Virus record (IMG/VR): IMGVR_UViG_3300007094_000006 | Location: 1 to 64,000 of that record | Direction: 5' to 3' (one strand) | From: a virus | Length of the DNA stretch: 64,000 nt | Position numbers and translations under genes: made by a program | Notes under the pieces: generated by a model | The model's database searches: none | Told to the model about the DNA's origin: nothing | What the model saw: the letters and a program-made list of their open reading frames with translations, nothing else | Part shown: piece by piece, positions 1 to 61,103 of the stretch | Position numbering within the stretch: position 1 is the first letter of the stretch | How the letters are laid out: each line of letters begins with the position of its first letter

Positions 1-1394
1 GGGGGGGGGTAATTTTATTTTTTTTTATCCTTCCCCACTTCAATTAACACACTGAAAAACGCCTAAAATTAGATATTCGTACCTTTCAGGAGCATTTGGA
101 AGCTACGAGTACCTTTGAGTACCCTTAGTTTAGAGGTTTCCCTAATTGTCTTTTTTTGAAAATCTTTGGTTATTCTGGGGGTTCTGGCTTTGTGAACTCT
201 GAGTGATAGGTATAAATACTTAGACCACGGGCTTAACCGTTCTTTCCTAATCTTCCCATTCAGACAATAACACTTCAACAGTTAGGGACTTTTTAGCCAT
301 TTTAGACCATTAAACCCATTTAGGCTATATTCTCACCATTTTAAGGATTTTAAGTTTACAGGGCTATTTTCCACCCCTTCCTCACACTCCATCCCTCCTA
401 GACAATACCACGTTTAACCTATCAGGTTATGGTTTAACCATATTAAGCATAAGGCAAAAAAAAAAAAATTAAAAGTGTTGAAATCCGCTCTGAGAAAGGC
501 TTTGGGGTGGAAAACCTTTTGGGAAATGGAAAACCTAAAAAAAACCTCTTGACATTTCGCTCAAATCATATTATGATGATAAGCATGGATACGAGACTAG
601 GAAACCCTAGGGTCTTGAAACATTTAACCTATCGAAAAAAAGGATATATTATATATATATGCGCGATTTTTGTGCAAAATTGGCTGAAACCTATACGCTG
701 TAAGGGTTTCACGGTTTGGAATAGGTAAGGCTAAACAACAAAACCCTGAAAACACCTCAAAAGGGGATGTCCTATGCCAAAACACAACTTAATGAAAAAC
801 TAAATCTCCAAAGGTACTTAAAGGTACTTGTAGCTCCTGAATACTCGCAAAAGGTACGAATATCTAATTTTTGGGGTTTTTCAGTGTGTTGATTCGATAT
901 ACCCCACATAAAAAAAATAAAGTTACCCCCCCCACTACATAGTACAAAGCAGACCAAACCCATACTGTGACTGAGTTTTATTGATTTTTTAAATGCACTT
1001 TAGGAGTACAAAAAATTTAAAACCCTTGATATGATTGAGTTTTATTGATTTTTAAAAAGTAGTACAGTCTGGGTGTCACATTTTAAAAATTTAAAAGTTG
1101 GCAAAATATGGCATGAAATATTTAAAGGTACTCAAAGGTACTTGTAGCTCCTGAATACTCTTAAAAGGTACGAATATCTAATTTTTGGGGTTTTTCAGTG
1201 TGTCGATTAGATATACCATACATAAAAAAAATAAAGTTACCCCCCCTACTACATAGTACAAAGCAGACCAAACCCATACTGTGACTGAGTTTTATTGATT
1301 TTTAAATGGTACTTTAGGAGTACCAAAAAATTGAAACCCTTGATATGACTGAATCTTATTGATTTTTTAAAAGTAGTACAGGCTGGGTGTCACA
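1..1394. repeat. Non-coding module A: inverted arm (1-~125, cut by window edge), core, then two tandem arms (810-1080, 1124-1394; period ~314 bp)
   Basis: 1-125 is the reverse complement of ~810-930. Arms carry AAAAAAATAAAGTTACCCCCCCYACTACATAGTACAAA, two GAGTTTTATTGATTTT boxes and AGTAGTACAG, all shared with modules B and C. Confidence 0.9.
549..577 (+). promoter_or_regulatory. Sigma70-type promoter in module A core, with the late motif CGCTCAAA inside its spacer
   Basis: TTGACA(549)-17bp-TATGAT(572); CGCTCAAA at 558; no credible ORF downstream. Confidence 0.7.
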
Positions 1395-1544
1395 TTAAGT
1401 AGAGAATAAACAAACGGTAGACACTTCTAAGAACGGTTAACTGAGAAATCTAAAAAACGGTTAACAGAGCGAAAAAAGACAGAATTTGCCATATAAAGTT
1501 ATATGGACTAAAAATTTAGGTGTCACAGTGGGGGCATTATTTCG

Positions 1545-2033
1545 ATGAAAGGAAAAACAAATAAAACCAAAGAAGAAATCAAAACACAAACAGAAACGTT
1601 GTTTGAAATTTACAAGCTAGGCGGGGTATCAGTTAGAAGTTTAGCAGAACGATATGGGATTCCGTGGACAACCTTAAGAGACCGATTCAAAAATAGGTAT
1701 GGAAAAATCTATACCAAATATAGGGCTGATGAGGGGACGATTCACGGAATCGTAAAAGAATACATGACTAAATTAAAAGGTAAACAATTAAAGGTGGTTT
1801 CTGATTGGTACAAAGAACATAAACAGGAACTGTTGTTAATGTCGTTAGATGACCAATTAGACCCAAATAGAACTAAAATCTATACCGAGCATCGCATGGA
1901 TACTGAAACAAAAGCTCAATGCAGATTGCCGTACAGTTTGGGAGATTCGCCATATTTGACGGGCAAGTATGCACCGGTAATCGATGGTGAAGATATTGAT
2001 GGTGATTTGCCGATAACTTGGTGGGATGCTTGA
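1545..2033 (+). CDS. HTH DNA-binding protein
   Basis: SVRSLAERYGIPWTTLRDRF helix-turn-helix; lies right after module A and AACGGTTAAC repeats (1413-1465). Confidence 0.7.
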   Translation: MKGKTNKTKEEIKTQTETLFEIYKLGGVSVRSLAERYGIPWTTLRDRFKNRYGKIYTKYRADEGTIHGIVKEYMTKLKGKQLKVVSDWYKEHKQELLLMSLDDQLDPNRTKIYTEHRMDTETKAQCRLPYSLGDSPYLTGKYAPVIDGEDIDGDLPITWWDA

Positions 2034-2037
2034 AAAT

Positions 2038-2044
2038 CGCCCAA
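2038..2044 (+). promoter_or_regulatory. Putative phage late-promoter motif CGCYCA(A/T), first of many copies
   Basis: Recurs upstream of virion/late genes at 6121, 7179, 8927, 10847, 22375, 32092, 33237, 35425, 36901, 38380, 41300, 41648, 50770, 55844; on minus strand at 22191, 57535 and 63680 (CGCCCAC variant). Confidence 0.75.
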
Positions 2045-2117
2045 ATTAATAGTGAGGTGCGAAACGTTTAGAGTTTCAACCTAAGTCCTTTTTAATAATC
2101 AAAGTAGGTGATCAAAT

Positions 2118-6817: not shown

Positions 6818-6828
6818 GCCCGAAAAAT

Positions 6829-47296: not shown

Positions 47297-47307
47297 GACC
47301 TTAAATA

Positions 47308-47383: not shown

Positions 47384-47422
47384 GTACTTTAAAACCTTTG
47401 TCAGCACAAGTACTTTAAAAAC

Positions 47423-48055
47423 ATGGATATTAATTTTCAAAATAAACTACCAGTGGCAATTTCTATTGGTGAGGATGTGGCTAAAAAAACCTTTAGTTTT
47501 GTTCAGCTATCTCGCCTACAGTCTAGTGAAAATATTTTGATGTTTCCTTTACTGGAATCCCAAAATTTAGAGGGTGGTTTCAAAAATATTCTTGAGCAAG
47601 CACGGCAAAAGGTAAACAATGCACTCAATCTAAATTGTCAATTTTCCATATCGGATTTAAAAGACAGAATAACGCAGTCACTATCTAATCAAGGTTGGAA
47701 CGAGGTTGATTGGGCAAATTTTTGGGTTAAAGAATTTTCGAGAGCTTTGGGGTATAATCAGTGGTTGAATCGGTCTTGTTATTCATTCTCTATTTTGGAT
47801 AAATACCTTAAACAAAAAAACTCGAAGATTATTATTTTGATAGATGGACTAGAAAATATTTTTCCGGATTTAGCCCATGATAACCTTCAACAAACAGCTT
47901 TGAAAGCATTGATAGAAAATTTGCCAAATAAATTGTCCGAAATTCGGCAATCTAATCTAGGATTGATCGTTTTTCTGCATAGAGATTCCATGAGAAAAAC
48001 AATTAGGCAAAACTCAGGACAATTTGAAAGCTTGTACAGTGAATACCTTTTTTAG
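47423..48055 (+). CDS. Host-derived fragment of a P-loop ATPase with broken Walker A
   Basis: SIGEDVAKKTF in place of GxxxxGKT; IIILIDGLE Walker B; QQ.AL.AL, RD....I.QN.GQF...Y; contains a rare GATC. Confidence 0.6.
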   Translation: MDINFQNKLPVAISIGEDVAKKTFSFVQLSRLQSSENILMFPLLESQNLEGGFKNILEQARQKVNNALNLNCQFSISDLKDRITQSLSNQGWNEVDWANFWVKEFSRALGYNQWLNRSCYSFSILDKYLKQKNSKIIILIDGLENIFPDLAHDNLQQTALKALIENLPNKLSEIRQSNLGLIVFLHRDSMRKTIRQNSGQFESLYSEYLF

Positions 48056-48163
48056 TGTGTGGTCAAACGACTAAGCCACTAAATTATCCTAAAATCACCT
48101 AGCTTTAGGTGATTTTTTTTTGAAACCCAGACATATACTAATTAACTTTACCAGTCTTTAATT

Positions 48164-49066
48164 ATGTCTGATGTGTCAAATGCCCCTTTAGTGGTGGTAG
48201 ATTTTCGAGTAGCTGTCTATCAAATATATTCTGAGTTTAAATTTATCAAAGCAAACTGTCCTCCTGAGATTGTGAAATCATGGTTAAAAGCGGCATGGGC
48301 TTTAAAATTAAACAGGGGTTTTACTGGATTGCCTTATTTTCCACATACTGTGGTGGTAGTCGACGACAGTTCACCTTATTGGAGAAACGATTATTTAAGA
48401 GAACGAGGATTTCCAGAGTATAAGGGCGGAAGACCCACTAAAACAGACGAATGGTATGAAGTCAATCAAGCTGGTATTGACTACATTCACGCACCCAACT
48501 CCCCCTTGCATTACCTTAAATTTGAAAAATTTGAAGCAGATGACATAGCTTCGGCACTTGTCCGCACAAGTCCTAAACGTTTAATCTTTCTTCACACTAT
48601 TGACTCGGATTGGATGGGGTTAGTCAAGGATGGTTGTCTCAATGCGAATTTTTCTTTAGACGAGGCAATTAAGGAACCATGGGTCGATACAACTGTTCTA
48701 TGGGTCAGCATGGATAAATGGACACCTCGTTTTAGAAATGTGGAAGGAGTAATAGCTCACACACTCAAAAGGGAAAAAACCCAAATTACTAACCCCGCTC
48801 AAGTCTGGGATATTAAGGCTGAAAAAGGCGATAAATCTGACAATTTAACCAAAGGTAGCCCTCTAGAGGTGATTAATCTATTAAATCCGCCACTTCAATA
48901 CGATTTGCTCAATATCCCTAAATGTAAAACCCAAATAGTGCAAGTAGCAAATGCTGGCACACCTAACTCAAGTTTAAAGCATATCAAAAAAGCTCATCAA
49001 TGGTTTGTCAATGCTGGACACCGTGTACCATTCTGGGGGTACTACGACTTTGTTCCAGACTTTTGA
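48164..49066 (+). CDS. 5'-3' exonuclease / flap endonuclease (T4 RNase H-like)
   Basis: VVD..., YWR...EYKGGR, EADDI, T.DSDW, GD.SDNL. Confidence 0.88.
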   Translation: MSDVSNAPLVVVDFRVAVYQIYSEFKFIKANCPPEIVKSWLKAAWALKLNRGFTGLPYFPHTVVVVDDSSPYWRNDYLRERGFPEYKGGRPTKTDEWYEVNQAGIDYIHAPNSPLHYLKFEKFEADDIASALVRTSPKRLIFLHTIDSDWMGLVKDGCLNANFSLDEAIKEPWVDTTVLWVSMDKWTPRFRNVEGVIAHTLKREKTQITNPAQVWDIKAEKGDKSDNLTKGSPLEVINLLNPPLQYDLLNIPKCKTQIVQVANAGTPNSSLKHIKKAHQWFVNAGHRVPFWGYYDFVPDF

Positions 49067-49249
49067 AAAATATTTTGAAAAAGGGGTTGACATCTTCAAA
49101 AAAACCAGCTAATATAGAAAACATAGACAAAGCAACAAGGTTCTAGTTCACACGCAGTCACTAACCCCGCCCAAGTCTAGGTTTGCAACTTTTGCTAAAT
49201 CAAAAATCAAACCTCAAAATCAACCAAACTCTCTCAAAACCTACGAATT

Positions 49250-50227
49250 ATGTCCTACAACTCTGTCGTTTCTTATGATAAACTTGAATCCGTTCTTTCC
49301 TCGAAAAATTGGGATAAAGCCTACGTCAACCTTCCAAACTCGTCAATCGGAAATGTTCTTAAGTCCCAATTTAAATACATTTTCGAGTCCGTTGGGGAGA
49401 CCTTCTCCGATAACGAATCAGTATTAACCGTACAAGCAGATAACGGAAACTTAAAACGCTTATACAGCCCTACTGTTTACCTCGTATCCAACGAGAAAAT
49501 TCGTGAATCTGCCTACGCTAAAGCAAATCCTAGCCTATTTGAATGTGATAGCACCCCTGTTTCTGACGAAGAAAAAACCAAAGCAAAAACTCCTGAAGCC
49601 ATCAAAGCTTATGAAGATTTATTGCTGAAAGGGCGGAATGTCGCTGTCCGTATGGGAGCTAAACTTTTTGTTCCTTTATTAGCTTTTAAAGCCATCGAAG
49701 GTTGCGATATTGCTTTAGATAACGGTGACATTGAAATTACCTTGCCAGAAACAGAACAGTTTCCTGAAGGTTTAACTGTAAAATTCAGTGTTCGTTACTC
49801 TGAATCTGACCTAGATAAGCGGAAATCTCAAGAAGCATCTTTTAAACGGGCGTTTTCACGGTATCTCAAAAACTCCGAAAACAACTTTGGTGCTTTTCTA
49901 TGTGAACCCCCTACCGGTGGTGGTAGCGGTATTCCTCTCCGTGACTTGGACGAAAATTCTGTTCATACCGTCATCGGTTATGAATTTAAAGAGTCGGAAA
50001 ATGGAGGTTTTTATATTCTTTCCTTAGACTCTGGTATTCATGTCATGAGCAACAAGGCTTTAGCTACTACCTTGCGTGGAAACCCTATCATTACTCCTGA
50101 CAAACCCGGTATTCTGCGAATTGCCGACAAGAAAAAAATGGCTAATGGCAACATGAAAGTAAATGCCGCTCTTTTAGTTCCTGTGGAAAACTATCCCAAT
50201 GATGATGGGTTTAACCTAGACTGGTAG
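49250..50227 (+). CDS. Possible ssDNA-binding/replication protein
   Basis: Strong promoter at 49087-49115, replication context, acidic-aromatic tail NDDGFNLDW. Confidence 0.4.
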   Translation: MSYNSVVSYDKLESVLSSKNWDKAYVNLPNSSIGNVLKSQFKYIFESVGETFSDNESVLTVQADNGNLKRLYSPTVYLVSNEKIRESAYAKANPSLFECDSTPVSDEEKTKAKTPEAIKAYEDLLLKGRNVAVRMGAKLFVPLLAFKAIEGCDIALDNGDIEITLPETEQFPEGLTVKFSVRYSESDLDKRKSQEASFKRAFSRYLKNSENNFGAFLCEPPTGGGSGIPLRDLDENSVHTVIGYEFKESENGGFYILSLDSGIHVMSNKALATTLRGNPIITPDKPGILRIADKKKMANGNMKVNAALLVPVENYPNDDGFNLDW

Positions 50228-50242
50228 TTCTAATGCGGTAGG

Positions 50243-50476
50243 TTGTCGACTGGCAGTGCCAACACTGCCAGAATCCAGCAAGAAGATAACATCTATACAA
50301 TATCGCAGATGGAACAACAGAGACAAACACCTAATTTCAGGTTAATTGAAGTAATAGAAGATGATAGTGCCAAAACTTTTATTTACGAAGACCCTGAAAA
50401 AAACATTAACTCCAGCTTTTTTGCTCGATTAAAAGCTAAAATTCAACAAATACTCAGACTATTTCATCGGAAATAG
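50243..50476 (+). CDS. Hypothetical protein
   Basis: ORF track; true start may be MEQQRQ. Confidence 0.45.
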   Translation: MSTGSANTARIQQEDNIYTISQMEQQRQTPNFRLIEVIEDDSAKTFIYEDPEKNINSSFFARLKAKIQQILRLFHRK

Positions 50477-50525
50477 AAAAAAAAGCAAACCCCCCCATTA
50501 ACCCCCCCTAAAAATTTGAGGTCTT

Positions 50526-50753
50526 ATGTCTGATAACTTTGACTTTTCCGAATACGATGGTGAGCTTGAAAACGAATGTACTCTATTAACTCGAAGCATC
50601 ATTAACACTCGTCGCCGCATTCAAAAACATACAGACAGTAACAAATTTAGTTTGGCTTCTCGTGCCAGATTATTAAACGCTATTACTCATCTGAATTTGC
50701 TTCTAGAAGATATATTTGACACCTACGAAGAACTATTCTTCGACAAAGAGTAA
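50526..50753 (+). CDS. Hypothetical protein
   Basis: GAGG RBS, 75 aa. Confidence 0.6.
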   Translation: MSDNFDFSEYDGELENECTLLTRSIINTRRRIQKHTDSNKFSLASRARLLNAITHLNLLLEDIFDTYEELFFDKE

Positions 50754-50808
50754 TAATTTTCTGCTTGAACGCTCAAACCCTAGATTAGTATATCTTGGGT
50801 TTTTTTAA

Positions 50809-51642
50809 ATGTTATCTGAAATTAGTAAGCCGCTTACTTTTAATCAACTAAAATCAAACTCTGAAATCCTTGCAGAATTGCAAACTTTGCTCAAAGAAAA
50901 AGGATTTTATCACTTAAAAATTGACGGAGTTTGGGGTCAAGGAACTGAAACAGCTATTGAGTCTGTCGCTAATTTATTAAATTTAAATAATTTCGATAAA
51001 AAATTAATTGGTAAAACTTTTATCAGCAAATTAACAAGTTACAATCCTGAAAAAGATACTGAAACTGAATTGGATGTTAGCCCTATCACAGAAGCTGACA
51101 TTTTAGCATTATCCAAATCTTTAGTCTTAGAATTAGCAACCATTAAAGCAGTTATAGAAGTAGAATCTTCTGGTTCTTGGGTACAAAAAGATGGAAAACC
51201 TATTATTCGCTTTGAATCTCATATTTTTAGTAGCCTAACTAATCATTTGTACGATAAAGATTATCCCAATATTTCCAGCAAAAAATACAATCCAAGTATA
51301 AATTTATCTACTTCTGAAAAAGAATATTGCCGATTAGATATTGCTAAAGATTTAAATGAAACAGCCGCTTTGAAATCTGCTTCTTATGGTGCTTTTCAGA
51401 TTATGGGCTTCAATCATGCTCTTGTTGGATTTAAAACTGTACAAGATTTCTACCAAGCCATGTTTAGCCCTAAAGAGCAATTAAAAGCTTTTGGTCAATT
51501 TTTAATCAAAAACTCGTTAGTAAAAACTTTAAGCAATAAAGATTGGAAAGGGTTTGCGTATTCCTATAATGGGTCTAGTTATCATTTGCACAAACCGCCC
51601 TATGATGTTCGTTTAGAGAATGCCTATCAAAAATACAATTAG
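50809..51642 (+). CDS. Endolysin: peptidoglycan-binding domain plus N-acetylmuramidase (DUF3380-like)
   Basis: LQ..L...G....IDG.WG..T; AV.EVES, I.FE.H.F, S.S.G.FQIMGFN, FA..YNG. Confidence 0.9.
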   Translation: MLSEISKPLTFNQLKSNSEILAELQTLLKEKGFYHLKIDGVWGQGTETAIESVANLLNLNNFDKKLIGKTFISKLTSYNPEKDTETELDVSPITEADILALSKSLVLELATIKAVIEVESSGSWVQKDGKPIIRFESHIFSSLTNHLYDKDYPNISSKKYNPSINLSTSEKEYCRLDIAKDLNETAALKSASYGAFQIMGFNHALVGFKTVQDFYQAMFSPKEQLKAFGQFLIKNSLVKTLSNKDWKGFAYSYNGSSYHLHKPPYDVRLENAYQKYN

Positions 51643-51704
51643 GTTGACAAATATCCTTTTACGTCCTAAAATAGGATACATAACGAGTTAAGGAGTTTGT
51701 TTCC

Positions 51705-53654
51705 ATGCCCAGAAAAAAGGCATCATCTAACAACGTGGACAAATTTAACCACCCAGAGTATAATAGCCAAAATCACTTAAAAGATGTCGAAGATACAGAA
51801 GATTTAGGGGATAACTATCTCAGTGACTACGATAAATATGCCGAAGGTATTCGGGTATTAAGTTCTTTAGGTTATACTTTCATTCCCCATTTTAACCCAG
51901 ACTGTCTTGGACACAGGGTTTATGTCGATACGCCTTTCACCCTGATTTCTAAAGATGGTAAAACAATTACTGATGTTAACCCTCCAAAAAATTTAAAATG
52001 GCGTAAAAGAATTAGCCTTGGTGATGATTTACCTTTATTGTCTAGTGCTTATTGTGCTATTCGTTCTCAATGTGGTAAATCAGTTGGTGATTTTTGGAAA
52101 CCTATGGTAGAGTTAGGTGGTGATAAACGTAAAGCCATTTTTAATATGGCATCCCTTTTTCTTGATGCTGAAAAGTTTAATTCTCGTCAAAAGTCTGATA
52201 ATCTAATCAGTCTTACAGGGGGCGATGGTGGTTTATATGTTGTCCCCCAAAAGTCTTGGTTTGACTCACGTTTTGATTCCATTTCTATTGACGACCTTTT
52301 ATACCTTTTTCCCTCTGCTGAATCTAAAATGCTTCAGTACATCATTGGGCGGATTTTTGTCGGGCGTGGAGGTACAAAATCCATTGAGGGTATTGTCGTT
52401 GAACATAAAGCCCGTTATATGGGTATAATTACAGGCGAACCTCGTTTAGGCAAATCAACCTTTTTAGACGCTATATCCGAAGCTATTCAATCTTTAGGCT
52501 TTGAAACTACTACCATTTCTGAGTCTAGCGGTCGTTTTGGTTGGGCTGAAATTGCCAGCAGTCATTTTACGTTTATCGATGACTTAACCAAAGAAACCCA
52601 ACGTCGTATTATTTCTTCTGGCAAAATTAAACAGATTGTTTCTAACAATGTTCTCAAAACTGAAAATAAGGGTGAAAGTGCTGTTAACACCCAATCCCAG
52701 ACCGTAATTATTGCCAGTAGCAATTCTTTCAATCTTCGTGATTTCTATAACGCTGACTCTGGTATTCAAGACAGAATAAAAATCTTAGAAATTAAAACTA
52801 AGGCTGAACTTTGTAAAGACAAATCTTTACCTTATCAGGTTGACGAAACTTGTCCTTTTAACCTTCATCGACATTGGCAATTTATTGCTGATAAGAACAA
52901 TGTTTCTTATGAGTCTCTCATTTATTGGTTGATTTACCTTTGTGTTCAAGAATTTTTGTCTGTTGTGGGCTATACTGAGGAAATTCCTCTTTTTCAACCT
53001 GAGAAATTTCCAGATATTGATGAAGAGACTTATAAACATCTTATGCGCTCTATAGCTCCTACTTTGAAAAAGACTAAGCCTTGTTCTCTTTATAAGACTG
53101 TCGAAGACTTAGAACGCAATTTCCGAATCCAAACTATGACTAATTCTACTCAAGCTTTAGTTTACTTTTGGCGATTTTGTCTCATTCTTTTCACTTATAA
53201 CGTCGAAAAGAAACCTTCTTTACCACCTCCTGTTTTTGACGTTAATTTTCTTATTCACTTTTTAAAGGCTCATCAAGCTTTTTATTCCCCAGAATTTGAA
53301 CCCTTACGCACTTTTCTAGAGGCTGATTATCTCTCTAATAACTCTCCTAAATGGCATCCTTATTCCGTGTTTTTAGAGGTTAACGGCTCTTGTATCTCTC
53401 AAGCTATTTTGAAATGTCTTGAGGCTGAAAATCTTTATTACCCTCCCGCTAAAATGGTCGAAATTTGTTTAAACTTTTTTACTTCTTCTAAAGGGTTTGA
53501 ACTTCGTAAAGATTTACCTATCATTATGGAATCTTATTCCTTAGCTTCTGCTCATGATTCCTTTTTTGTTGAATTAACTTCTCATCTTTTTTATGAACAA
53601 CCAGCCCTCTTTGAATTAGTTCAAAAGGCTAAAAGACAAGTCCAATCTCGATAG
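51705..53654 (+). CDS. SF3 (D5-like) helicase
   Basis: GEPRLGKST, FIDD, E.KG, motif C SSN, R finger; promoter at 51644-51672. Confidence 0.8.
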   Translation: MPRKKASSNNVDKFNHPEYNSQNHLKDVEDTEDLGDNYLSDYDKYAEGIRVLSSLGYTFIPHFNPDCLGHRVYVDTPFTLISKDGKTITDVNPPKNLKWRKRISLGDDLPLLSSAYCAIRSQCGKSVGDFWKPMVELGGDKRKAIFNMASLFLDAEKFNSRQKSDNLISLTGGDGGLYVVPQKSWFDSRFDSISIDDLLYLFPSAESKMLQYIIGRIFVGRGGTKSIEGIVVEHKARYMGIITGEPRLGKSTFLDAISEAIQSLGFETTTISESSGRFGWAEIASSHFTFIDDLTKETQRRIISSGKIKQIVSNNVLKTENKGESAVNTQSQTVIIASSNSFNLRDFYNADSGIQDRIKILEIKTKAELCKDKSLPYQVDETCPFNLHRHWQFIADKNNVSYESLIYWLIYLCVQEFLSVVGYTEEIPLFQPEKFPDIDEETYKHLMRSIAPTLKKTKPCSLYKTVEDLERNFRIQTMTNSTQALVYFWRFCLILFTYNVEKKPSLPPPVFDVNFLIHFLKAHQAFYSPEFEPLRTFLEADYLSNNSPKWHPYSVFLEVNGSCISQAILKCLEAENLYYPPAKMVEICLNFFTSSKGFELRKDLPIIMESYSLASAHDSFFVELTSHLFYEQPALFELVQKAKRQVQSR

Positions 53655-53668
53655 GTACGGAGGTTTTT

Positions 53669-54715
53669 ATGCGTTCCAGAGGCTTTGGTAAAAAAGTCAC
53701 AGCTAACTCTTTTAAGTTTCGAGATTTTGATAACTTGTCCCTTTCTGCCATTCAATCCGAAATTACCGACAAATCCTCTTTCATTAAAGTTCATAAAGAA
53801 TTTGAACTTTTTGTCTTAACCAATGTCCTTCCCGTTGGTTATACTTGCTCTCATCATCTCCAAATCTACAATCTTTTAAAATCCCTTCTTCCTCTCTTCA
53901 ATCCTCCCAAATCTAACGCTACTTCTGCTCAAGGTCTTAATAGAGCTATTCTCCTCGCTTTAGGTAGTACCTTGACCAGTCTCAAAAACCTTCCTTTTTC
54001 TGATAAGGCTCCTAATTCTTTTTTAAAGGTTGAATCAATGGCATTATCTCAGAAATTAGTCTCCAAACTTGACTATTCTCTTAAATACTCTATCTTTTTT
54101 CTGAATCAATACGACTCTTGTTATCAGGCTTCTCAGTCTTTTGATTTGCTCTCTTATTCCCCCTTTTGGCATCTTTTCAACTCTGAACTTTCTCTCTCTC
54201 GTTCTGCCTATCTTGACCATTCTTTATCTCTTTGGTCTTCACTTTCTCATTTTTATCTCCAATGTTTCAACTCTGTTATTTCTTTTTCCCAGTCAAAATT
54301 TAATCTTCCTTGCCCTCTCGAAGGTTTATTTTCTCATTTTGCACACAATCTCAATCAGGGTAATTCTCTTTCCTTTTTGATTGAAGCTTGGCAAGTCCAT
54401 TTGAATCTGGTTTCCCAAACTTCCTTTTTCTATAAGTCTCCTAATCTTAACAAATGGTCTTCTTATATTGAAACTGACTCTTGGGGTTCCTATTTTTATG
54501 ATGGACATAACATTTCGGATTTGCTATCTGAAGCTTTTCCTTGGTTCATCAACAAATCCTATGCCCCTAGTGCTATTGTTTCCCTAAAACCCGCTCGTAC
54601 TCAAAAATATATCAGGGAATGGGCTAACTCAAATTCTTTTTCAACTTGCTCTTTGCCCCATTTTGAACCCTGTCCCTATCTTTCTGGCTTGATTTCCCCC
54701 ACTTTGGATTTTTAA
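53669..54715 (+). CDS. Hypothetical protein
   Basis: GGAGG RBS; 348 aa, Ser/Leu/Phe-rich. Confidence 0.65.
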   Translation: MRSRGFGKKVTANSFKFRDFDNLSLSAIQSEITDKSSFIKVHKEFELFVLTNVLPVGYTCSHHLQIYNLLKSLLPLFNPPKSNATSAQGLNRAILLALGSTLTSLKNLPFSDKAPNSFLKVESMALSQKLVSKLDYSLKYSIFFLNQYDSCYQASQSFDLLSYSPFWHLFNSELSLSRSAYLDHSLSLWSSLSHFYLQCFNSVISFSQSKFNLPCPLEGLFSHFAHNLNQGNSLSFLIEAWQVHLNLVSQTSFFYKSPNLNKWSSYIETDSWGSYFYDGHNISDLLSEAFPWFINKSYAPSAIVSLKPARTQKYIREWANSNSFSTCSLPHFEPCPYLSGLISPTLDF

Positions 54716-54742
54716 CTTTTCTCCCCCCCCCCCTAAAAATTT

Positions 54743-55762
54743 ATGGAACGTAAACTTGCAACCTTAGAAGTCATCAAAGACCTTCAACCTATCCTCGGTG
54801 CTGACAATATTGAAGTGGCTACTGTCCGTGGTTGGAAAGTCGTAGTTAAAAAAGGAGAATTTCAAATTGGTAGCCTTTGTGTTTTTTTTGAAATTGATTC
54901 TTTTCTACCTGAAATTCCAGAATTTGAATTTTTGCGGAAGTCTTGTTTTGCTACCTTAAACACTGGTGAAACTGGTTTTCGTATCAAAACCATTAAGCTG
55001 AAAAAACAATTAAGTCAGGGTCTAGCTTTGCCTTTATCTCTTTTTTCCTTGACTTCTAATACCTTTACACTAGGTACAGACCTCACTGATTTCTTAGGTG
55101 TCAAAAAATGGGAACACTCTGTCTCTGCTTCTTTAGGCGGTAATGTTTTAGGCAATTTTCCCTCTTTTGTTCCTAAAACTAACGAAGAACGCATTCAAAA
55201 TTTAAGTGACCTATACCCTTTACTTTGTCAAAAATCCTTCAATGTTACCGAAAAACTAGACGGCACTAGCTTTACTGCTTTCTACTACAATGATACTTTT
55301 GGTGTCTGCTCTCGAAATCAGGAATTAATGGAATCATCTACCAACATTTATTGGCAAATTTTTCACCAGTATAAAATTGGTGATTTCCTAAAATCTTTAC
55401 CTTTCTTCTCCGCTATTCAAGGTGAAATTGTTGGTGGTAAAATTCAAGGCAATCCTTACAAACTTCCAAACTATCGGCTTTGTGTTTTCAATTTGATTAA
55501 CCTTGACAATCAAGAAAGATTAGACATTTTTTCCCCTTCTAACCTCTCCCTCTTGTCCAATGCTGGGCTTGATACTGTTCCTCTACTATTTCGTGACTTT
55601 TCTCTACCTTCTTCCCTTGATTCTTTAATTGCTTTTTCCTCTGGTAATTCCCTTCTTAATCCCAATACTATTCGTGAAGGTCTGGTTTTCAGAAACTTTG
55701 AAAATTCCTACACCAGTTTTAAAGTTATCAGCAACAATTTTTTGCTAAAACAAAAGATTTGA
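54743..55762 (+). CDS. RNA ligase, Rnl2/DRB0094 family
   Basis: N-terminal OB domain (I.GAD.IE...V.GW.VVVKKGEF), TEKLDGTS motif I, QGE..G, REGLVF, FKVISN.FL. Confidence 0.92.
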   Translation: MERKLATLEVIKDLQPILGADNIEVATVRGWKVVVKKGEFQIGSLCVFFEIDSFLPEIPEFEFLRKSCFATLNTGETGFRIKTIKLKKQLSQGLALPLSLFSLTSNTFTLGTDLTDFLGVKKWEHSVSASLGGNVLGNFPSFVPKTNEERIQNLSDLYPLLCQKSFNVTEKLDGTSFTAFYYNDTFGVCSRNQELMESSTNIYWQIFHQYKIGDFLKSLPFFSAIQGEIVGGKIQGNPYKLPNYRLCVFNLINLDNQERLDIFSPSNLSLLSNAGLDTVPLLFRDFSLPSSLDSLIAFSSGNSLLNPNTIREGLVFRNFENSYTSFKVISNNFLLKQKI

Positions 55763-55866
55763 ACTTAGGATAGTTGATTCTAGCTAGTCTTCTTAAATTC
55801 TAGGAAGACTTTTTTGCCTTCTTTAATTTAGAAGGCTTTTTTTCGCCCAAATTATAGTTAAAGCAA

Positions 55867-55940
55867 CGTGGGATAGAGCAGTCTGGTAGCTCATCAGCCT
55901 CATAAGCTGAAGGTCGTAGGTTCAAATCCTGCTCCCGCCA
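55867..55940 (+). tRNA. trnM: tRNA-Met(CAT), initiator-like body with atypical anticodon stem
   Basis: Full cloverleaf; anticodon 55901-55903; C1xC72 mismatch; A11-U24; stem TCAGC/GCTGA; CCA not encoded. Confidence 0.92.
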
Positions 55941-56021
55941 TTAAACTTAAATAGTCCTAATCGTTTGGCTTTTAGCTTCAATTGTGCTATAATTGGTTTG
56001 TATATTTTTAATAGAGAAAAA

Positions 56022-56750
56022 ATGTCTAAAAGTAATCTGATTGTATTCGATTTAGATGATACTTTGCTAAATACTAGCCATGTTTATTGGCTTGCAAAAA
56101 AGCTTTTTGTGGAAACTTTATCTGAAGAATTAAAAATTAACGAAAATAAATTAATTGAAGAATTTGAAAAAATTGATAGTATTCAAATGCAAATACTAAA
56201 GCATTCTCCTTATCGTTATACTTTAAGTATGATAGAAACTTATAAATTGGTTTCTCATAAGATAAATCATCAAATATCTGAGGAAACTTTAAAGGCTATT
56301 AAAGAGTTTGGACGTTTAATTTTAAAAATTACACCAAATACTATTAAGGGGGCTAAAGAAATTCTTGCTTGGTCATCTCAAAACTATTCCCTTGCATTAT
56401 TGACAAGAGGTGAAAATTCATTTCAAAAAAAGAAATTACACAAAAATAAACTGTATAAATACTTTGATTTTATAAGAGTTGTACCTCACAAAAACGCCGA
56501 AGTTTTAAAAAATTTTATCACAGATATAGGCTTTGATTGTCAAGATGTTTGGGTTATTGGTGACTCATTAAAATCAGATACTAATCCGGGCATTGAAATT
56601 GGAGCAAAGTGTATCTTGTACACCTATCATCATCCTCATTATCATTGGATACAAGATACTGAAAGTGTTGCATTAGGCTCTTTTTACAAAGTTGATAATT
56701 TATCAGATATTAGAGAAATTCTTGAATCAGATTCTATTTCTATTTCATAG
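56022..56750 (+). CDS. HAD-superfamily hydrolase/phosphatase
   Basis: FDLDDTL, LTRG, K, IGDSLKSD. Confidence 0.9.
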   Translation: MSKSNLIVFDLDDTLLNTSHVYWLAKKLFVETLSEELKINENKLIEEFEKIDSIQMQILKHSPYRYTLSMIETYKLVSHKINHQISEETLKAIKEFGRLILKITPNTIKGAKEILAWSSQNYSLALLTRGENSFQKKKLHKNKLYKYFDFIRVVPHKNAEVLKNFITDIGFDCQDVWVIGDSLKSDTNPGIEIGAKCILYTYHHPHYHWIQDTESVALGSFYKVDNLSDIREILESDSISIS

Positions 56751-56840
56751 TCGATGAGTTGAAAAATCCAATATTTTGCAATTTTGCCTCAACAACTTTC
56801 CATCTTTTAGTAGTTCACCTTTTCAGTGTGTGAACTACTC

Positions 56841-57035
56841 TCAAGTTTCTAAGGGATTGGGATAATAAATTATTTCGTTAGCACTTGGTATTGTTTGTCC
56901 AATTTCAAGCTCTGATACATAAAATATGTCTTTCAAACTTGTTACTGTTTGCACAACAACCCCCTCTGTATTAACGATATAAATTATATTTTCCACCTTT
57001 GAGGCTAATATTTCCCCTAATATCTCAATTGCCAT
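56841..57035 (-). CDS. Small hypothetical protein (start MAIEILG)
   Basis: The upstream part of the called ORF is the 12-bp repeat read off-frame. Confidence 0.55.
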   Translation of the reverse strand: MAIEILGEILASKVENIIYIVNTEGVVVQTVTSLKDIFYVSELEIGQTIPSANEIIYYPNPLET

Positions 57036-57036
57036 T

Positions 57037-57502
57037 TTAATTACCCTCATCATTATCTTCATTATTACCCTCATTTTCATCATTATCTTCATTATTATCT
57101 TCATTATTATCTTCATTATTATCTTCATCTAAAGTCACTTCTGGAGTAACATTCACTAAACCTTCAAATATTCTATACACTGTATTTCCATCTGGCGATT
57201 TCATTTCTAAATCATAAACCCACGCATTTTGCCCTATTTTATTTCCTAATGCCGGCGGTATTGTTTTCGATACTAAATGTCCTAGCACTGGTCTTATTAA
57301 TGTGTGATTTTCGTATGTGTTTTCCTCTATTACAATGTCATCAAATACTACTTCCACTTCTCCTTCTGCTAATAATGCCCCTTTAAATCTTTTTCTGATT
57401 TGCCACTTAAATTCCCACCCACTATAATCACCCGGTAAAAGTAATGATTTCCCTTTAAAATTGGCTCCTTGTCTTATTAATATGTTTTGTTTTATCGTTT
57501 CC
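57037..57502 (-). CDS. Probable accessory virion protein with (EDNN)n acidic tail
   Basis: I.I.QGA.F, QIR, VYDLE...G...R..EG.V.V.PEVT; late motif at 57535 on minus strand. Confidence 0.65.
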
Positions 57503-57612
57503 ATTTCTTTTTTCCCTTTTCTTTTAATTTTAACTTGAGCGACAAAAAACAGGGTTGACATTTTTTTTCTTTGTGCTATGATAGCTTTGTAGTCTTAGCA
57601 ATCAAGAAAAAA

Positions 57613-58332
57613 ATGCCTAATCTCACGATTTTAGATTTTGAATCCTCTAACATCCGATTTGAAAACCGTGATGGACGAGTTTGGGTGAGTCTAACTGATA
57701 TGGCAAACGCTAGTGGAAAACTCATTGGTCATTGGAACCGGCTAGACTCCACAAAGGAATTTCTGTCAGCCTTAGAGTCCGATATCCATCAACGGATATC
57801 GGAAACCATAAAAGGTGGTGTCCCTTCAAAACAAGGAACTTGGGCTATCGAAGAAGTTGCCATCGAATTTGCTGGCTGGTGTTCTGTTCATTTCAAAATT
57901 TGGATGCTACGCCAGATTAAAACTTTGATGACTCAAGGCTATGTTGCATTGCCGCAAACTCAACAGCCTAAACTTCCCGCTCACAAACTCGCTGAAGAAA
58001 TTACGGAATCTATTTTCCAAATTCAAAACAAAATTTCTGAAAACAATCCCCGATTGGCACAATTTCTCATCGATTTAGCAATTTCCGAAGTTATGCCCGC
58101 AGGTAACAGCTTAACAGGTGTTAAACTAAAAGGGGTCGCCGAAATTGCAGAATCTTTGGGTTTGCCAGTTAATTTTCAAAACCGTTCTTCTTTAGGCAAG
58201 TTTGTTAAAAAAACTTGTGGACATCTTGCTCAACAAGAAGAACGCTTGGTTAATGGACAGCAACGATTTGTTGCTTGCTACCCAGAGGATGAACCTGAAG
58301 TTATTCAAGCTATCAGAAATTTTTTTAGCTAG
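57613..58332 (+). CDS. KilA-N domain protein 1 (antirepressor-like)
   Basis: VSLTDMA...W.RL.STKEF...QGTWA..EVAI.FA.W; promoter at 57555-57582. Confidence 0.88.
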   Translation: MPNLTILDFESSNIRFENRDGRVWVSLTDMANASGKLIGHWNRLDSTKEFLSALESDIHQRISETIKGGVPSKQGTWAIEEVAIEFAGWCSVHFKIWMLRQIKTLMTQGYVALPQTQQPKLPAHKLAEEITESIFQIQNKISENNPRLAQFLIDLAISEVMPAGNSLTGVKLKGVAEIAESLGLPVNFQNRSSLGKFVKKTCGHLAQQEERLVNGQQRFVACYPEDEPEVIQAIRNFFS

Positions 58333-58631
58333 TTAGTTTGAATTTTTAATCTTTTGCCTTCTTCAATTAGAGGGCTTTTTTATGACCTTAAGCTATAAGT
58401 TTTTCTTATGAGTAATATAAGAATTAATAATCCTAGACCACTTGCCATTTTTCATCGTGTTTGCTATACTTAGATTGGTGATTCAATTTCTTAAAATCTA
58501 AGGATTAATTTTTCAGCCCGTCTTCCTACCTAAAATTGGAAGACTTTTTTTTTGTTTAAATTTTAATTTTTAGTTGACAACTTTTTTTATTTGTGTGATA
58601 CTAGAATTTGTACCTTAACAATGCGAAAAAA

Positions 58632-59249
58632 ATGCCTACTCTAACAATTTTAGATTTTCAGTCCTCTAACATCCGATTTGAAAACCGTGATGGACGAGTT
58701 TGGGTGAGTCTGACTGATATGGCGAAAGCTAGTGGAAAACGCCTTAGTCATTGGAACCAGCTAAACTCCACGAAAAAATTACTGTCTGCATTAGAGTCCG
58801 TGGTCGGGAAAACGGCCACGGAAACAATTCAAGGTAGTGTTCCGTCAAAGCAAGGAACTTGGGCTATTGAAGAAGTTGCCATTGAGTTTGCCGGGTGGTG
58901 TTCTATCCATTTCAAGATTTGGATGCTACAGCAAATCAAAACCCTGATGACCCAAGGCTATGTTGCATTGCCGCAAACTCAACAGCCTCAAACACCCAAA
59001 TTATCTGCCAACAAACAGGCATTGGAAATCAGCCGTGATGTTCGAGAAATCACTGATGTTCAACCAGAAAGTTTACACTTCTTGGAACAAACAGAAATGG
59101 GAATAAAAGTTCATCCCGTGCAGGAGTCTTACGGCAAAAATGTTGACCAAATTTTGGAAGATTTGATGGGGTTAGAAACAACTCGTCCCAAAGAAATCGC
59201 TGAAGCTTGGAAAGATATATATATGAACAAATTTCTCAAAATCAATTAG
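58632..59249 (+). CDS. KilA-N protein 2 fused to a PtuA-like C-terminal domain (frame broken at (AT)5)
   Basis: KilA-N nearly identical to gene 1, then ITDVQPESL...SYGKN.D.ILEDLMG...RP. Confidence 0.8.
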   Translation: MPTLTILDFQSSNIRFENRDGRVWVSLTDMAKASGKRLSHWNQLNSTKKLLSALESVVGKTATETIQGSVPSKQGTWAIEEVAIEFAGWCSIHFKIWMLQQIKTLMTQGYVALPQTQQPQTPKLSANKQALEISRDVREITDVQPESLHFLEQTEMGIKVHPVQESYGKNVDQILEDLMGLETTRPKEIAEAWKDIYMNKFLKIN

Positions 59250-59418
59250 AGACTTCTAAAAATAAAATCAATGACCTCAGAGCTAAAATTCAAAATGACC
59301 CAGAATTAATTAAAGCTGAAGTTGTTATTCGACGCAAGGAAATTATCGGAAAATGAAGTATATTAGAAAAAGACAAGAACCACCAGAGTTTAAGAATTGG
59401 AAAGAGCAAGCTAACCAA
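59049..59418 (+). pseudogene. Captured host ptuA 3' end and ptuB (TIGR02646-type HNH) 5' end
   Basis: ...DPELIKAEVVIRRKEIIGK* overlapping ATGA MKYIRKRQEPPEFKNWKEQAN. Confidence 0.75.
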
Positions 59419-59737
59419 GTGAAGTCCTTCCTTCTATCCACAAAACTGGTAGCTATTCCTTACCTCAACAGCCTCAACTTCTTAGTGAAGAAAAAGCGCA
59501 GTTTAAAGACTTGGAAAAGACAAAATTAAAGGTCTATGTACCGCCCACACACCCAGTGAAGTCCAAGAAGCTATAGAAGAAAAATTGTTCCCTTGCCAAA
59601 ATGGAAACGGAAACCGCAAATCAGTCTAAAAGTCTTCCAATTGAATGTTGGAAGATTTTTTTTTGTTTAAACTTTAATTTTAGTTTTGAGTAGACAACTT
59701 TTTTTTTGTGCTATACTAAAAATGTCCAATTAAATAA

Positions 59738-60127
59738 ATGTGTGTAAACTCTATGTCTCAATCTTCATTTTTAGAATCCTACCCTAACGCTGGTGGGATT
59801 CGTATTGAAAATCGTGATGGTGTGATTTGGGTTAGCCTAACCGATATTGGTCGTGCGTGTGGAAAATTTTTTTGGGAATGGAAAGAACTGGAATCCACAA
59901 AAAAGTTCCTGAACAGCTTAGGGTATGATAGAGGATTCAAACTCTTTGAAACTAAACAAGGTGGTGAAACTTCAAAACGGGGTACTTGGGCTATTGAAGA
60001 AGTAGCCATTGAGTTTGCTAACTGGTGTTATCCTAGCTTAAAAGATGTGGCGGTAGCTAAAGCGGTCGCTGAAATCCAAAATTTGCTTTCTGACGACAAC
60101 CCCCGATTTGCACAAGGAATTTTCTAA
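59738..60127 (+). CDS. KilA-N protein 3 (truncated)
   Basis: Same motifs; ends just after the NPR.AQ segment seen in gene 1; promoter at 59691-59717. Confidence 0.8.
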   Translation: MCVNSMSQSSFLESYPNAGGIRIENRDGVIWVSLTDIGRACGKFFWEWKELESTKKFLNSLGYDRGFKLFETKQGGETSKRGTWAIEEVAIEFANWCYPSLKDVAVAKAVAEIQNLLSDDNPRFAQGIF

Positions 60128-60325
60128 TGTCACTGAATTAACGACACTCAGTAGAGTCCAAAAAGGTATGGTTTTGAAAAAGGGAGTAACTATTAGTTAA
60201 ACCCTTGGTGGAAACCAAAAAAGGCATGGAAAAAATCGTTCCCTTGACTGGAAAGCAACGGAAGCCAAAAAACAGTCTCATAGTCTTCCAATGAAATGTT
60301 GGAAGATTTTTTTAGGTCTTAACCA

Positions 60326-61103
60326 TGTACTACCTATTCCAAAATCAATAAAACCCAATCATATCAAAGGTTTTAGCGTTTTAATCTTTAAAAAACACCA
60401 TTTTAAAATCAATAAAACTCAGTCGTAGTATAGCTTTGACCCATTTGTACTATGTAGTAGGGGGGGGGGTAACTTTATTTTTTTTTTGTCTCTACCCATT
60501 TGAATCATCGCCGTTTAACGAAAAAAAAGTCCCACCTCACCACCCCACACCCCAAAAATATTTTTCCACTACCACTTGACATTTTGTTTATTTCTATGCT
60601 ATGCTATACATATAGCGAAAAAAAAAAAATAGAATGGGGGATAGGATACTAGGATACTTTAATCCTAGGGTATTCACAAATTAACCTATCAAAAAATTAA
60701 ATATATATTTTAAATATTTAGCCCATATTTACCCATTTTACCCATTTTGCCTATTTTTAGCCATTTTTAGCCATTTTTAGCCATTAAGAATCCGTTTAAC
60801 GGTAAAAGTATTGTTACCCGCCCCGAAGTGCAAGGAATGGCTGTTTTTTGCCATCTGTAGTGTTTTTGTCCACCTCAAAAGAAACAGAAAGGAATGCCAG
60901 TGTTTTGAACTCCGATGCAATGATTCAAATGGGTAGTGACAAAAAAAATAAAGTTATCCCCCCTACTACATAGTACAAACAGGTCAAAGCCATACCCAGA
61001 CTGAGTTTTATTGATTTTAAAATGGTGTTTTTTAAACTCTAAATCCTTAAAACCCTTGATATGATTGGGTTTTATTGATTTCCGACCAAGTAGTACAGTT
61101 TTT
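60326..61103. repeat. Non-coding module C: inverted arm 60326-60511, core, arm 60917-61103
   Basis: Reverse complement of module B; TTGACA(60576)-18-TATGCT(60600); AT-rich tract and TTTTAGCCAT repeats. Confidence 0.92.

Follow-up and report, generated by a model that had tools for sequence, protein, structure and literature searches.

Dispersed palindromic modules in a Mic1-like phage genome as possible hr-like cis elements, one of them at the GC-skew minimum

The 96.8-kb circular genome of a relative of Microcystis phage Mic1 carries four non-coding palindromic modules (A, B, C, and D) with 13 arms altogether. We tentatively read them as lineage-specific hr-like cis elements, module A lying at or next to the main replication origin and B–D being auxiliary; we regard this as possible, although short of probable. 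The window, i.e., the whole stretch of DNA analysed, was the first 64 kb of the genome. Modules A, B, and C were all present where the preliminary description had placed them, and its count of three holds for the window, whereas the whole genome has a fourth module (D, at 78773-79985 of the record, beyond the window), and module A continues across the record ends, with further arms at 96339-96523 and 96655-96794. The record end was joined to its start by a metagenome contig with 100% identity. The anatomy within the window was established directly:

1-~50, minus strand: partial arm of module A
1..127, minus strand: inner part of the proximal inverted arm of module A; the G-run at 1-9 is the C-tract of the arm
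128..809, plus strand: core of module A, with promoter, hairpin, AT tract, and periodic words
291-340, plus strand: TTAGCCAT-like 9-10-bp periodic words of core A
549-577, plus strand: promoter of core A, with a second promoter-like site (TTAACC-17-TATTAT) at 624-652
~592-617, plus strand: RNA hairpin of core A, with the AT tract at ~641-662
810..1394, plus strand: two direct arms of module A, each with two boxes and a GTAGTACAG terminus
910-1068 (810-1068 including the A-type extension), plus strand: direct arm 1 of module A
1224-1381 (1123-1382 including the A-type extension), plus strand: direct arm 2 of module A
1545..2033, plus strand: small protein with a weak HTH_psq / transposase-type HTH match, adjoining module A
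34391..34580 (BLAST arm 34391-34579), minus strand: inverted arm of module B
34581..34985, minus strand: core of module B, with its promoter on the minus strand
34909-34904 (–35) and 34885-34880 (–10), minus strand: promoter of core B
~34846-34816, minus strand: hairpin of core B, followed by the AT tract (~34800-34776) and seven 9-11-bp units (34775-34706)
34986-35173 and 35184-35383, plus strand: two tandem direct arms of module B
35384..60325, no strand: 25-kb segment between modules B and C, with terminase, portal, FEN, SF3 primase-helicase, RNA ligase, and KilA-N genes
51705..53654, plus strand: primase with an SF3 helicase core (DUF5906 / RNA_helicase profile matches)
60326..60511, minus strand: inverted arm of module C
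60512..60914, plus strand: core of module C
60576-60605, plus strand: promoter of core C (TTGACA-18-TGnTATGCT), with a second promoter-like site at 60681-60709
~60644-60676, plus strand: hairpin of core C, followed by the AT tract (~60693-60718) and seven 9-11-bp units (60717-60785)
60915..61103, plus strand: direct arm of module C

The remainder of the proximal inverted arm of module A was found at 96655-96794 of the record, and the A-type arm extension with its AAGGTAC words occupies positions 42-127. Module A lies within 3.2 kb of gene-free repeat DNA, and a tandem-repeat panel lies to its left (95.0-96.3 kb). A terminator-like hairpin (60282-60308) immediately precedes the inverted arm of module C. 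The number of arms varies from 1+1 to 2+2 over four to five loci; the fifth module, E, occurs in some relatives, is missing from this genome, and has left a solo arm remnant in Mic1.

The eight arm copies previously claimed, one of them partial, were recovered with 80-93% identity (BLAST E 1e-33 to 1e-102). The inverted arms are 190 bp long and sharp-ended, so that terminal inverted repeats are present; the boundary lies at GTAGTACAG, and the outer ends of the modules read CTGTAC...GTACAG. Every arm has two non-palindromic 17-bp boxes, spaced 64 bp start to start. The genome holds 26 such boxes, all inside modules and none elsewhere. Alignment of 34 arms from 7 phages gave a mean pairwise identity of 0.95-0.97 for the two boxes and of 0.96 for the terminal GTAGTACAG, compared with 0.49-0.82 between the motifs and 0.34 just beyond the arm. 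Each arm motif named in the preliminary description was present, and conservation peaks at these motifs by direct observation. The arms fall into two deep, separate clades (A-type and B/C/D-type), which indicates that the module copies are old and stable.

The cores have near-consensus sigma-70 promoters, TTGACA-17-TATGAT in A and TTGACA-18-(TGn)TATGCT in B and C. The promoter did not vary among 14 B/C/D-type cores and was also conserved in the A type, and in all cores it is followed within about 80 nt by a ~30-bp tract of almost pure A+T. The features described earlier were all found, in the order promoter, CCTAGGGT...AACCTATC block, AT tract, and TTAGCCAT-like units; the 9-11-bp units number three to seven in B/C/D-type cores and are weak in the A types. 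The cores contained no conserved ORF, as had been stated, and core A is indeed diverged otherwise, since A and C could be aligned only over the ~72 nt of the promoter–hairpin–AT block. This block occurs in exactly four copies per genome, each within a module. Of the cells in the 11-pair hairpin, 97.6% are paired, and three pairs show compensatory changes; the covariation, a direct observation, had a score reached by 0 of 500 shuffles, and the G-U wobbles are compatible with the promoter-sense strand only. RNAalifold enclosed the AT tract in a three-helix RNA fold of ~100 nt (97.9% of cells paired), the closing helix of which showed one compensatory pair and wobble changes. At B and D, the promoters are antisense and point at the 3' ends of the adjacent genes, and therefore they are not mRNA promoters.

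The same module loci were present in Mic1 and in about 15 uncultivated relatives, with identical junctions for A–D in all of them. We found no module outside Mic1-like phages in 185,579 prokaryote species genomes, 17 Microcystis species, plasmids, and other phages. The lineage restriction is thus directly observed, and the objection that the modules are ordinary MITEs scattered in host chromosomes fails, because the copies are confined to these phages. A comparison of the flanks of all module ends revealed no direct target-site duplication. The earlier view of the modules as cis elements that are under selection, specific to phages, and built like the T4 and T7 origins from a promoter plus an AT tract is supported. 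Neither of two Mic1 papers, one being PMC7156551, mentions them.

The cumulative GC skew (detrended, circular) had a single minimum at 965, inside module A. The maximum was located at 48,755, i.e., 49% of the circle from the minimum and close to the antipode of the module A centre (48,867). The amplitude was 1588 compared with 563 ± 126 in block shuffles, none of 2000 being as high. For third-codon (GC3) skew, replichore, with limits taken from the same data, gave an R2 of 0.37, and gene strand an R2 of 0.001. Such a division into two replichores, irrespective of gene strand, suggests that replication has long proceeded in both directions from a single site; to our knowledge, no other tailed lytic phage is documented with such a clean, strand-independent pattern. 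The skew step at module A fell in the 99th-100th percentile, while the steps at B, C, and D were not significant (combined P about 0.15-0.2). Four origins firing equally would yield a sawtooth skew. The multi-origin system proposed earlier was not supported; what stood was the place of module A at the single minimum, with the maximum at its antipode. Module A could thus lie at or next to the main bidirectional origin, a suggestion in which the position of the minimum is computed and initiation would follow from it. The skew curve has a flat bottom between about 96.0 kb and 1.0 kb, and therefore the origin could be the tandem-repeat panel at 95.0-96.3 kb rather than module A. The B–C segment has its midpoint at 47.7 kb, 1 kb short of the skew maximum.

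The neighbours of the modules are the HTH protein, a tail tube protein, KilA-N proteins, an HNH protein, and hypothetical proteins; none of their genes encodes an initiator. Iteron-type origins (lambda, P1, P4, plasmids), in contrast, have the initiator gene beside or around the origin, together with a cluster of direct repeats in helical phase at an AT-rich region; in the modules, the 9-11-bp units after the AT tract would be the candidate for such a cluster. The HTH protein (1545-2033) had been proposed to bind the arms. This proposal was not supported, given the weak HTH_psq match, its adjacency to module A alone, and no paralogue beside the other modules. The phage encodes the SF3 primase-helicase and a family-A (Pol-gamma-type) polymerase, and no Rep protein was recognisable among its proteins. 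By analogy with the alpha protein of phage P4, the SF3 primase-helicase is a candidate origin-binding initiator; its gene lies 8-16 kb from the nearest module.

In the hr-like reading, the modules most resemble in design the homologous regions (hrs) of large eukaryotic DNA viruses; the steps from the binding of a protein through transcription to priming, and whatever part B–D take in replication, are inferred as follows. A module forms one large imperfect palindrome with one or two 190-bp arms per side, the two boxes of an arm lying on the same helical face. A putative sequence-specific protein would bind the boxes, and since these are found nowhere else in the genome, it should assemble on the modules only. 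Host sigma-70 RNA polymerase would start at the arm-bracketed core promoter and transcribe through the hairpin into the ~30-bp A+T tract. The transcript would open this tract and prime the Pol-gamma-type polymerase, and the SF3 primase-helicase would be loaded there. Module A, of the diverged type, would be at or beside the principal bidirectional origin, and B, C, and D (with E in some relatives) may serve as weak or stage-specific origins or as initiator-holding sites. Recombination between modules would be a by-product, leaving variants common within a genome and possibly the B–C inversion. A more far-reaching version, which we consider rather unlikely, is a bacteriophage hr system. Here, the modules would be four to five RNA-primed origins or replication enhancers, with the 26 boxes bound by a dedicated phage protein (e.g., the SF3 primase-helicase or KilA-N). 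A single master origin would define the replichores, with the rest firing during lytic growth, and the modules would drive segment inversion, producing genome isomers.

The modules could instead be multi-copy genes for a structured non-coding RNA of ~100 nt or more (e.g., a regulator or an anti-defence decoy), with the arms as bound regulating or insulating flanks and no part in replication. The strand-specific hairpin covariation, the invariant promoter, and the exact four copies, all in modules, agree with this, and the three-helix fold around the AT tract is as compatible with an RNA gene as with an unwinding element. We nevertheless consider it unlikely: no intrinsic terminator followed, and the Rfam 15 covariance models gave nothing at gathering score (best E within modules 0.11, far below threshold), nor any match when E was relaxed to 5. 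Between the A type and the B/C/D type, only about 72 nt are conserved, and an RNA gene leaves the 26 conserved boxes, the palindromic layout, and the place of A at the skew minimum unaccounted for. A phage-restricted selfish repeat, i.e., a non-autonomous foldback or IR-DR-type element with two transposase-binding boxes per long inverted repeat that spread to four or five sites, appears distinctly unlikely. Its attraction lies in the sharp CTGTAC...GTACAG ends and the two subterminal direct repeats in each arm, which recall IR-DR elements and the ends of Tn7 and Mu, together with the transposase-type HTH next to module A and the module E that some relatives carry and of which Mic1 keeps a solo arm. 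Such an element is difficult to reconcile with ends lacking target-site duplications, with hosts, plasmids, and other phages free of copies, and with A–D at the same junctions in all relatives, the deep arm clades marking old, stable copies. The core promoter and hairpin are under selection, and no DDE transposase was recognised, the sole transposases being TnpB types.

Recombination, another alternative raised earlier, gained some support. The B–C segment is inverted in the Mic1 GenBank record, with crossovers within the modules that can be placed anywhere in ~500 bp of shared sequence, and among the arrangements tested, only the observed inversion kept the skew amplitude. Derived variants are common to modules B and C here, and likewise to modules X and Y in Mic1, a pattern suggestive of intermodule conversion within a genome; module D lies within a 3-kb tract of 100% identity, compared with about 94% elsewhere. 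All of this would suit dedicated platforms that invert or exchange segments to give isomers, as in herpesviruses and the yeast 2-micron plasmid. Such a function is very doubtful, as about eleven or more natural junctions in independent contigs keep the order of this genome, with Mic1 as the sole exception. For Mic1, 12 Velvet contigs were put in order with PCR and Sanger sequencing (PMC7156551), and therefore the inversion could be artefactual or reflect a mixture of isomers. Neither the Mic1 annotation nor the 40 proteins scanned contained a recognisable recombinase, and any inverted repeats of 200-800 bp recombine passively in a phage. A Hin/Gin-type invertible segment was rejected, as there is no adjoining recombinase and the crossovers are spread over ~500 bp instead of short sites. 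Centromere-like or genome-organising sites, dispersed as in the plasmid-prophage N15, would account for scattered clusters of repeated boxes, and Mic1 is reported to encode ParA and ParB (PMC7156551), which might bind them. The partition alternative weakened, and we consider it highly improbable: the homologues of Mic1 ‘ParA’ and ‘ParB’ (47423-48055 and 72804-73436 of the record) matched no Pfam or PHROG family, the boxes are non-palindromic, and the parS proposed by the Mic1 authors is a different site.

The baculovirus hrs are several dispersed non-coding loci of repeated imperfect palindromes with copy numbers varying by locus. They are proposed origins and enhancers as well as recombination sites between genomes, and similar repeats occur in other large DNA viruses. 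The modules are likewise dispersed loci of common imperfect palindromes with variable copy number, and multi-copy KilA-N genes adjoin module C; the baculovirus bro genes, frequent hr neighbours, encode a domain, Bro-N, to which KilA-N is related. There is, however, no sequence relation, the phage host is bacterial, and the likeness would be one of functional class. Moreover, hrs are tandem 30-bp palindromes, whereas a module is a single giant palindrome with 190-bp arms and a unique promoter-bearing core. The T7 primary origin and T4 oriF/oriG share the strong promoter, the tandem second promoter-like site, and the AT tract that follows, and T7 also has a replisome with a family-A polymerase and a fused primase-helicase. 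In contrast, the module promoter is of the host sigma-70 type, a conserved hairpin separates it from the AT tract, and the 190-bp box arms are without counterpart. Phage P4 ori/crr and SPP1 oriL/oriR similarly place the same repeated binding words at more than one locus per genome, and the P4 initiator alpha is a primase–SF3 helicase like the protein at 51705-53654. The modules differ in forming four to five loci of much larger, palindromic units with 17-bp boxes 64 bp apart, instead of the clustered octamers of P4, and no binding domain was identified. HSV-1 oriS/oriL have inverted initiator boxes in a palindrome around an AT-rich centre, copies in inverted repeats, and inverting segments; they measure 45-144 bp compared with about 1 kb here, the module has an internal promoter and RNA, and there is no homology.

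Phages of the Mic1 lineage infect bloom-forming Microcystis, and their use in bloom control and engineering is under consideration. The modules explain the fixed break points in assemblies of these phages, as well as a possible difference in gene order between the published Mic1 genome and its wild relatives. If they are origins or replication enhancers, they would provide a defined cis element for shuttle replicons and for the engineering of Mic1-like phages, and they would show how replication begins in a phage that combines a Pol-gamma-type polymerase with an SF3 primase-helicase. A bacteriophage hr system, if true, would be a prokaryotic counterpart of the baculovirus hrs and of the origin palindromes of herpesviruses, and this in a phage whose polymerase is of the mitochondrial type.

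The dispersed non-coding modules A, B, and C, which the preliminary description had reported with eight arm copies in the window, proved to be built of real repeats, and the observation could be extended. With a 200-bp arm as the query, 13 arm copies were detected genome-wide in the full 96,796-bp IMG/VR virus record (E = 1e-33 to 1e-102), of which the window is bases 1–64000. Eight copies fall in the window, in agreement with the preliminary description; outside it are the following:

96339–96523 and 96655–96794 of the full record: two further arms, completing module A across the record ends
78773–79985 of the full record: module D, a fourth module with four arms, outside the window

Every module has the same layout, with one or two arms on the minus strand, then the promoter-bearing core, and then one or two arms on the plus strand. 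Arm conservation was measured by aligning 34 arms drawn from seven phages. The two TGAGTTTTATTGATTTT boxes of each arm, spaced 64 bp start to start, had mean pairwise identities of 0.95–0.97, and the terminal GTAGTACAG reached 0.96. The A8-TAAAGTTA-C7-ACTACATAGTACAAA block was nearly invariant, homopolymer length excepted. Identity was 0.49–0.82 between the motifs and 0.34 just beyond the terminus. This pattern shows selection on the arms at the level of motifs. At up to two mismatches there are 26 box occurrences per genome, every one within an arm. A role of the boxes as operators or late promoters at other loci was also considered and rejected, as the genome-wide scan found none outside the modules.

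The metagenome contig L181 bridges the end of the record (last 1,361 bases, 100% identity) and its start (first 3,129 bases, 99.97%), so the genome is circular or circularly permuted. The record ends are a cut placed in the G-run of one arm. The Microcystis siphophage Mic1 (GenBank MN013189, 92,627 bp) is about 85–95% identical to the window genome, segment by segment. Another relative, contig L177 (Ga0315899_10025370), has 3.6 kb extra (933–4542), without a match in the window genome, separating its module B from the tail tube gene.

The modules are confined to Mic1-like phages, namely Mic1 and about 15 IMG/VR and metagenome contigs otherwise syntenic with the window genome; close relatives of the tail tube protein were likewise found only in Mic1-like contigs. 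Mic1 itself has four modules (22.2–22.6, 54.1–54.9, 72.6–73.1, and 89.0–89.4 kb) and one solo arm. The modules are described in neither Mic1 paper, and a literature search for equivalents returned nothing relevant. Ordinary MITEs, scattered in host chromosomes with target duplications, had been named among the observations that would refute the proposed role as origins or partition/recombination platforms. We searched for them and reject the MITE reading. The strict arm pattern had no match in 185,579 prokaryote species (one genome each), and the ten matches of a loose two-box pattern in the same set came from unrelated MAGs, none being arm-like by BLAST. The sole BLAST match of module C in 17 Microcystis species genomes was a 33-nt chance hit inside rplK, the L11 ribosomal protein gene. 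No target duplication was found at any module end. Searches of plasmids and of other phages returned no relatives of the modules, and A-HIS1, the nearest phage by replication genes, has no comparable repeats.

Modules A–D keep to one set of four junctions across all relatives, and the A-type arms form a separate clade (support 100/100); the copies are therefore old residents. Some turnover was seen. Several relatives (contigs L018, L182, and L185) carry a fifth module, E, between window positions 57541 and 57972, which is absent from the window genome and has left only the solo arm in Mic1. A direct repeat flanking that arm was not accepted as a target duplication, since it is part of a local hairpin-bearing tandem repeat family and so gives no evidence of insertion. 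Mic1 also carries, beside its solo arm, an array of ~100-bp units (19800–20500) that the window genome lacks; each unit combines a conserved AAATTGGAACGTTCTAAACCCCACAAAGCAGTCTCTGTATGG segment with a GTGTTGCCATTTTGGAAACAC-type hairpin that varies. The surroundings of module C contain the following:

61777–63696: 1.9-kb insertion that is not in Mic1, 0.7 kb right of module C
62128–63159: TnpB gene within this insertion (OrfB_IS605 and Cas12f1-like TNB)
57571–60323: three KilA-N gene cassettes at ~1.0–1.1-kb intervals, directly left of module C

In Mic1, it is module A that has a TnpB insertion (gp49) beside it; therefore, two different IS605-type insertions adjoin modules. Terminator-like hairpin units and TTGACA promoter units (repeat families D4–D6, D9, and D13) recur between the KilA-N cassettes. 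In relatives, the KilA-N block is flanked by modules E and C.

The B/C/D-type cores contain an invariant promoter, TTGACA-18-TGnTATGCT, and core A contains TTGACA-17-TATGAT. The cores also have a hairpin 30–40 nt downstream of the promoter, a second promoter-like site (TTAACC-17-TATATT), and ~30 bp of nearly pure A+T, and the B/C/D types have three to seven 9–11-bp units (TTTTAGCCAT / TTTACCCAT). Core A is well conserved across the A-type cores of four phages. The alignable part of cores A and C is limited to ~72 nt, exactly the promoter–hairpin–AT block. Across 15 distinct promoter-proximal sequences, the 11-pair hairpin had 97.6% of cells paired, and slid control alignments fell to 31–58%. 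Three pairs are compensatory, with G-C/C-G and U-A/G-C between the A and B/C/D types and G-C/A-U within B/C/D. The covariation score was 0.296 vs. 0.146 ± 0.025 in shuffles, none of 500 being as high. Where only one partner of a pair has changed, the promoter-sense strand retains a G-U wobble and the complementary strand would have an A-C mismatch; this points to an RNA, or single-stranded DNA, of promoter-sense polarity. For 14 B/C/D-type cores, RNAalifold predicted a three-helix unit of ~100 nt (97.9% of cells paired), adding a closing helix with one compensatory and three wobble pairs, and an A-U hairpin formed by the AT tract; the support for both predicted helices is modest. The promoters of modules B and D face the 3' ends of neighboring genes and are therefore not mRNA promoters. 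No intrinsic terminator was found downstream.

Two other helices were discarded. A second hairpin deeper in the core (UAAUGG...CAUUA) was broken in several sequences, judged by eye on alignment A2, and was not predicted by RNAalifold, and an outer GAUAGG/CCUAUC helix was broken by U-to-C changes on the promoter-sense strand. A DnaA-box-like word, TTTTCCAC(T/C), occurs at 34924–34932 (minus strand), 60562–60570 (plus strand), and also 368–376. In every one of the 14 B/C/D-type cores it precedes the –35 hexamer by ~5 nt; its conservation is lower in the A types. The word fits the box at eight of nine positions, which could be chance.

The detrended circular cumulative GC skew had a single minimum at 965, inside module A, and a single maximum at 48,755; the antipode of the center of module A is at 48,867. 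The amplitude of 1588 was not reached in any of 2000 shuffles of 1-kb blocks (563 ± 126). For the plus-strand third-codon skew of 90 ORFs, the side of the circle, with replichore limits derived from the same data, gave an R2 of 0.37, and the gene strand gave 0.001. Mean GC3 skew was –0.19 on one side in both gene orientations, and +0.05 and +0.15 on the other. Mic1 behaves likewise, its minimum lying at the edge of the TnpB insertion beside its A module. Such a pattern is characteristic of a genome replicated bidirectionally over the long term, here from a site at or beside module A. The skew minimum is broad, staying level from about 96.0 kb through to 1.0 kb. Beside module A lies this DNA:

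95000–96300 of the full record (160–1240 of L010): 1.3 kb of gene-free tandem repeats left of module A, outside the window

These repeats (4 x 51, 7 x 11, 3.6 x 11, 8 x 38, and 3 x 11 bp, the 38-bp unit being a Fur-box-like palindrome) are poorly conserved relative to Mic1 (23–58% identity). The true origin could lie in them rather than in module A. The left-to-right skew step was in the 99th–100th percentile for A and in the 37th–88th for B, C, and D (combined P about 0.15–0.2). Since the latter steps are unremarkable, the proposed multi-origin system, taken as four equal origins, is not supported. The Mic1 early genes are gp49–gp73 (PMC11237433). They fill its segment between modules A and D, only gp49 lying just outside A; thus, module A is also where the early region starts. 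The FEN gene contains the skew maximum, a putative terminus. The corresponding maximum in Mic1 (9,491) is about 650 bp from the authors' parS-like 23-bp palindrome (8828–8850), of which the window genome has no exact copy.

Two candidate proteins and, apart from these, a tRNA gene were noted:

51705–53654: 'primase' with an SF3 helicase core (DUF5906, RNA_helicase)
1545–2033: HTH protein (only Atlas leads under 0.9 and a weak match to HTH_psq, E = 3.6e-5)
55867–55940: tRNA gene between the RNA ligase and HAD hydrolase genes (Rfam, 61 bits)

SF3 primase-helicases such as P4 alpha bind origins, which makes the first protein a reasonable candidate origin binder. A PDB sequence search gave no relative for it or for the HTH protein. 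The genes right of A and right of B showed no paralogy, and module B has no neighboring paralogue of the HTH protein.

The 25-kb segment between B and C is inverted relative to Mic1, the other three segments being collinear, and flank similarity changes partner inside the modules. The segment is centered at 47.7 kb, 1 kb away from the skew maximum. Four inversions between adjacent modules are possible, and B–C alone keeps the skew amplitude (1560 vs. 852–1336 for the others); bacterial inversions symmetric about the terminus likewise keep skew. About eleven or more junctions in independent natural contigs all have the order of the window genome. The Velvet assembly of Mic1 consisted of 12 contigs, which were ordered and oriented by PCR and Sanger sequencing (PMC7156551), so the inversion may be genuine, a mixture of isomers, or the result of PCR jumping inside the repeat. 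Independently, two modules of Mic1, those at 22 and 89 kb, have derived variants in common, e.g., ATCTTAGG in the hairpin, and B and C of the window genome have others; such sharing within one genome suggests conversion between modules. The 3 kb around D (77100–80150 of the full record) is 100% identical to Mic1 vs. about 94% in neighboring DNA, which suggests a recent exchange there. Core D of the window genome has a 48-bp deletion.

Several readings were weighed against these data. Multi-copy RNA genes would have the covarying hairpin; no Rfam family matches the module RNA, at the gathering score or at a permissive E-value, and we consider this reading unlikely. A phage-restricted selfish repeat would fit the turnover of module E; set beside the constant junctions and the selection on the core promoter and hairpin, it is an improbable account. 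Dedicated inversion platforms would be in line with the B–C inversion; with one order in the natural contigs, we think this quite improbable. Centromere-like sites would suit dispersed, box-bearing arms, and partition had been an alternative offered in the preliminary description. It is rejected here: the homologues of Mic1 'ParA' and 'ParB' (window 47423–48055; full record 72804–73436) had no hit to a family in Pfam or PHROG, which makes the partition annotation published for Mic1 look weak, and a centromere-like role is very doubtful.

The original interpretation is thus supported in part. The modules are selected, lineage-specific cis elements with an origin-like grammar. One of them coincides with the inferred origin, and B, C, and D carry no replication signature. 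The modules have two further properties, a structured RNA and recombination with one another. The best reading, offered tentatively, is that they are replication and recombination elements resembling the homologous regions (hr) of baculoviruses.
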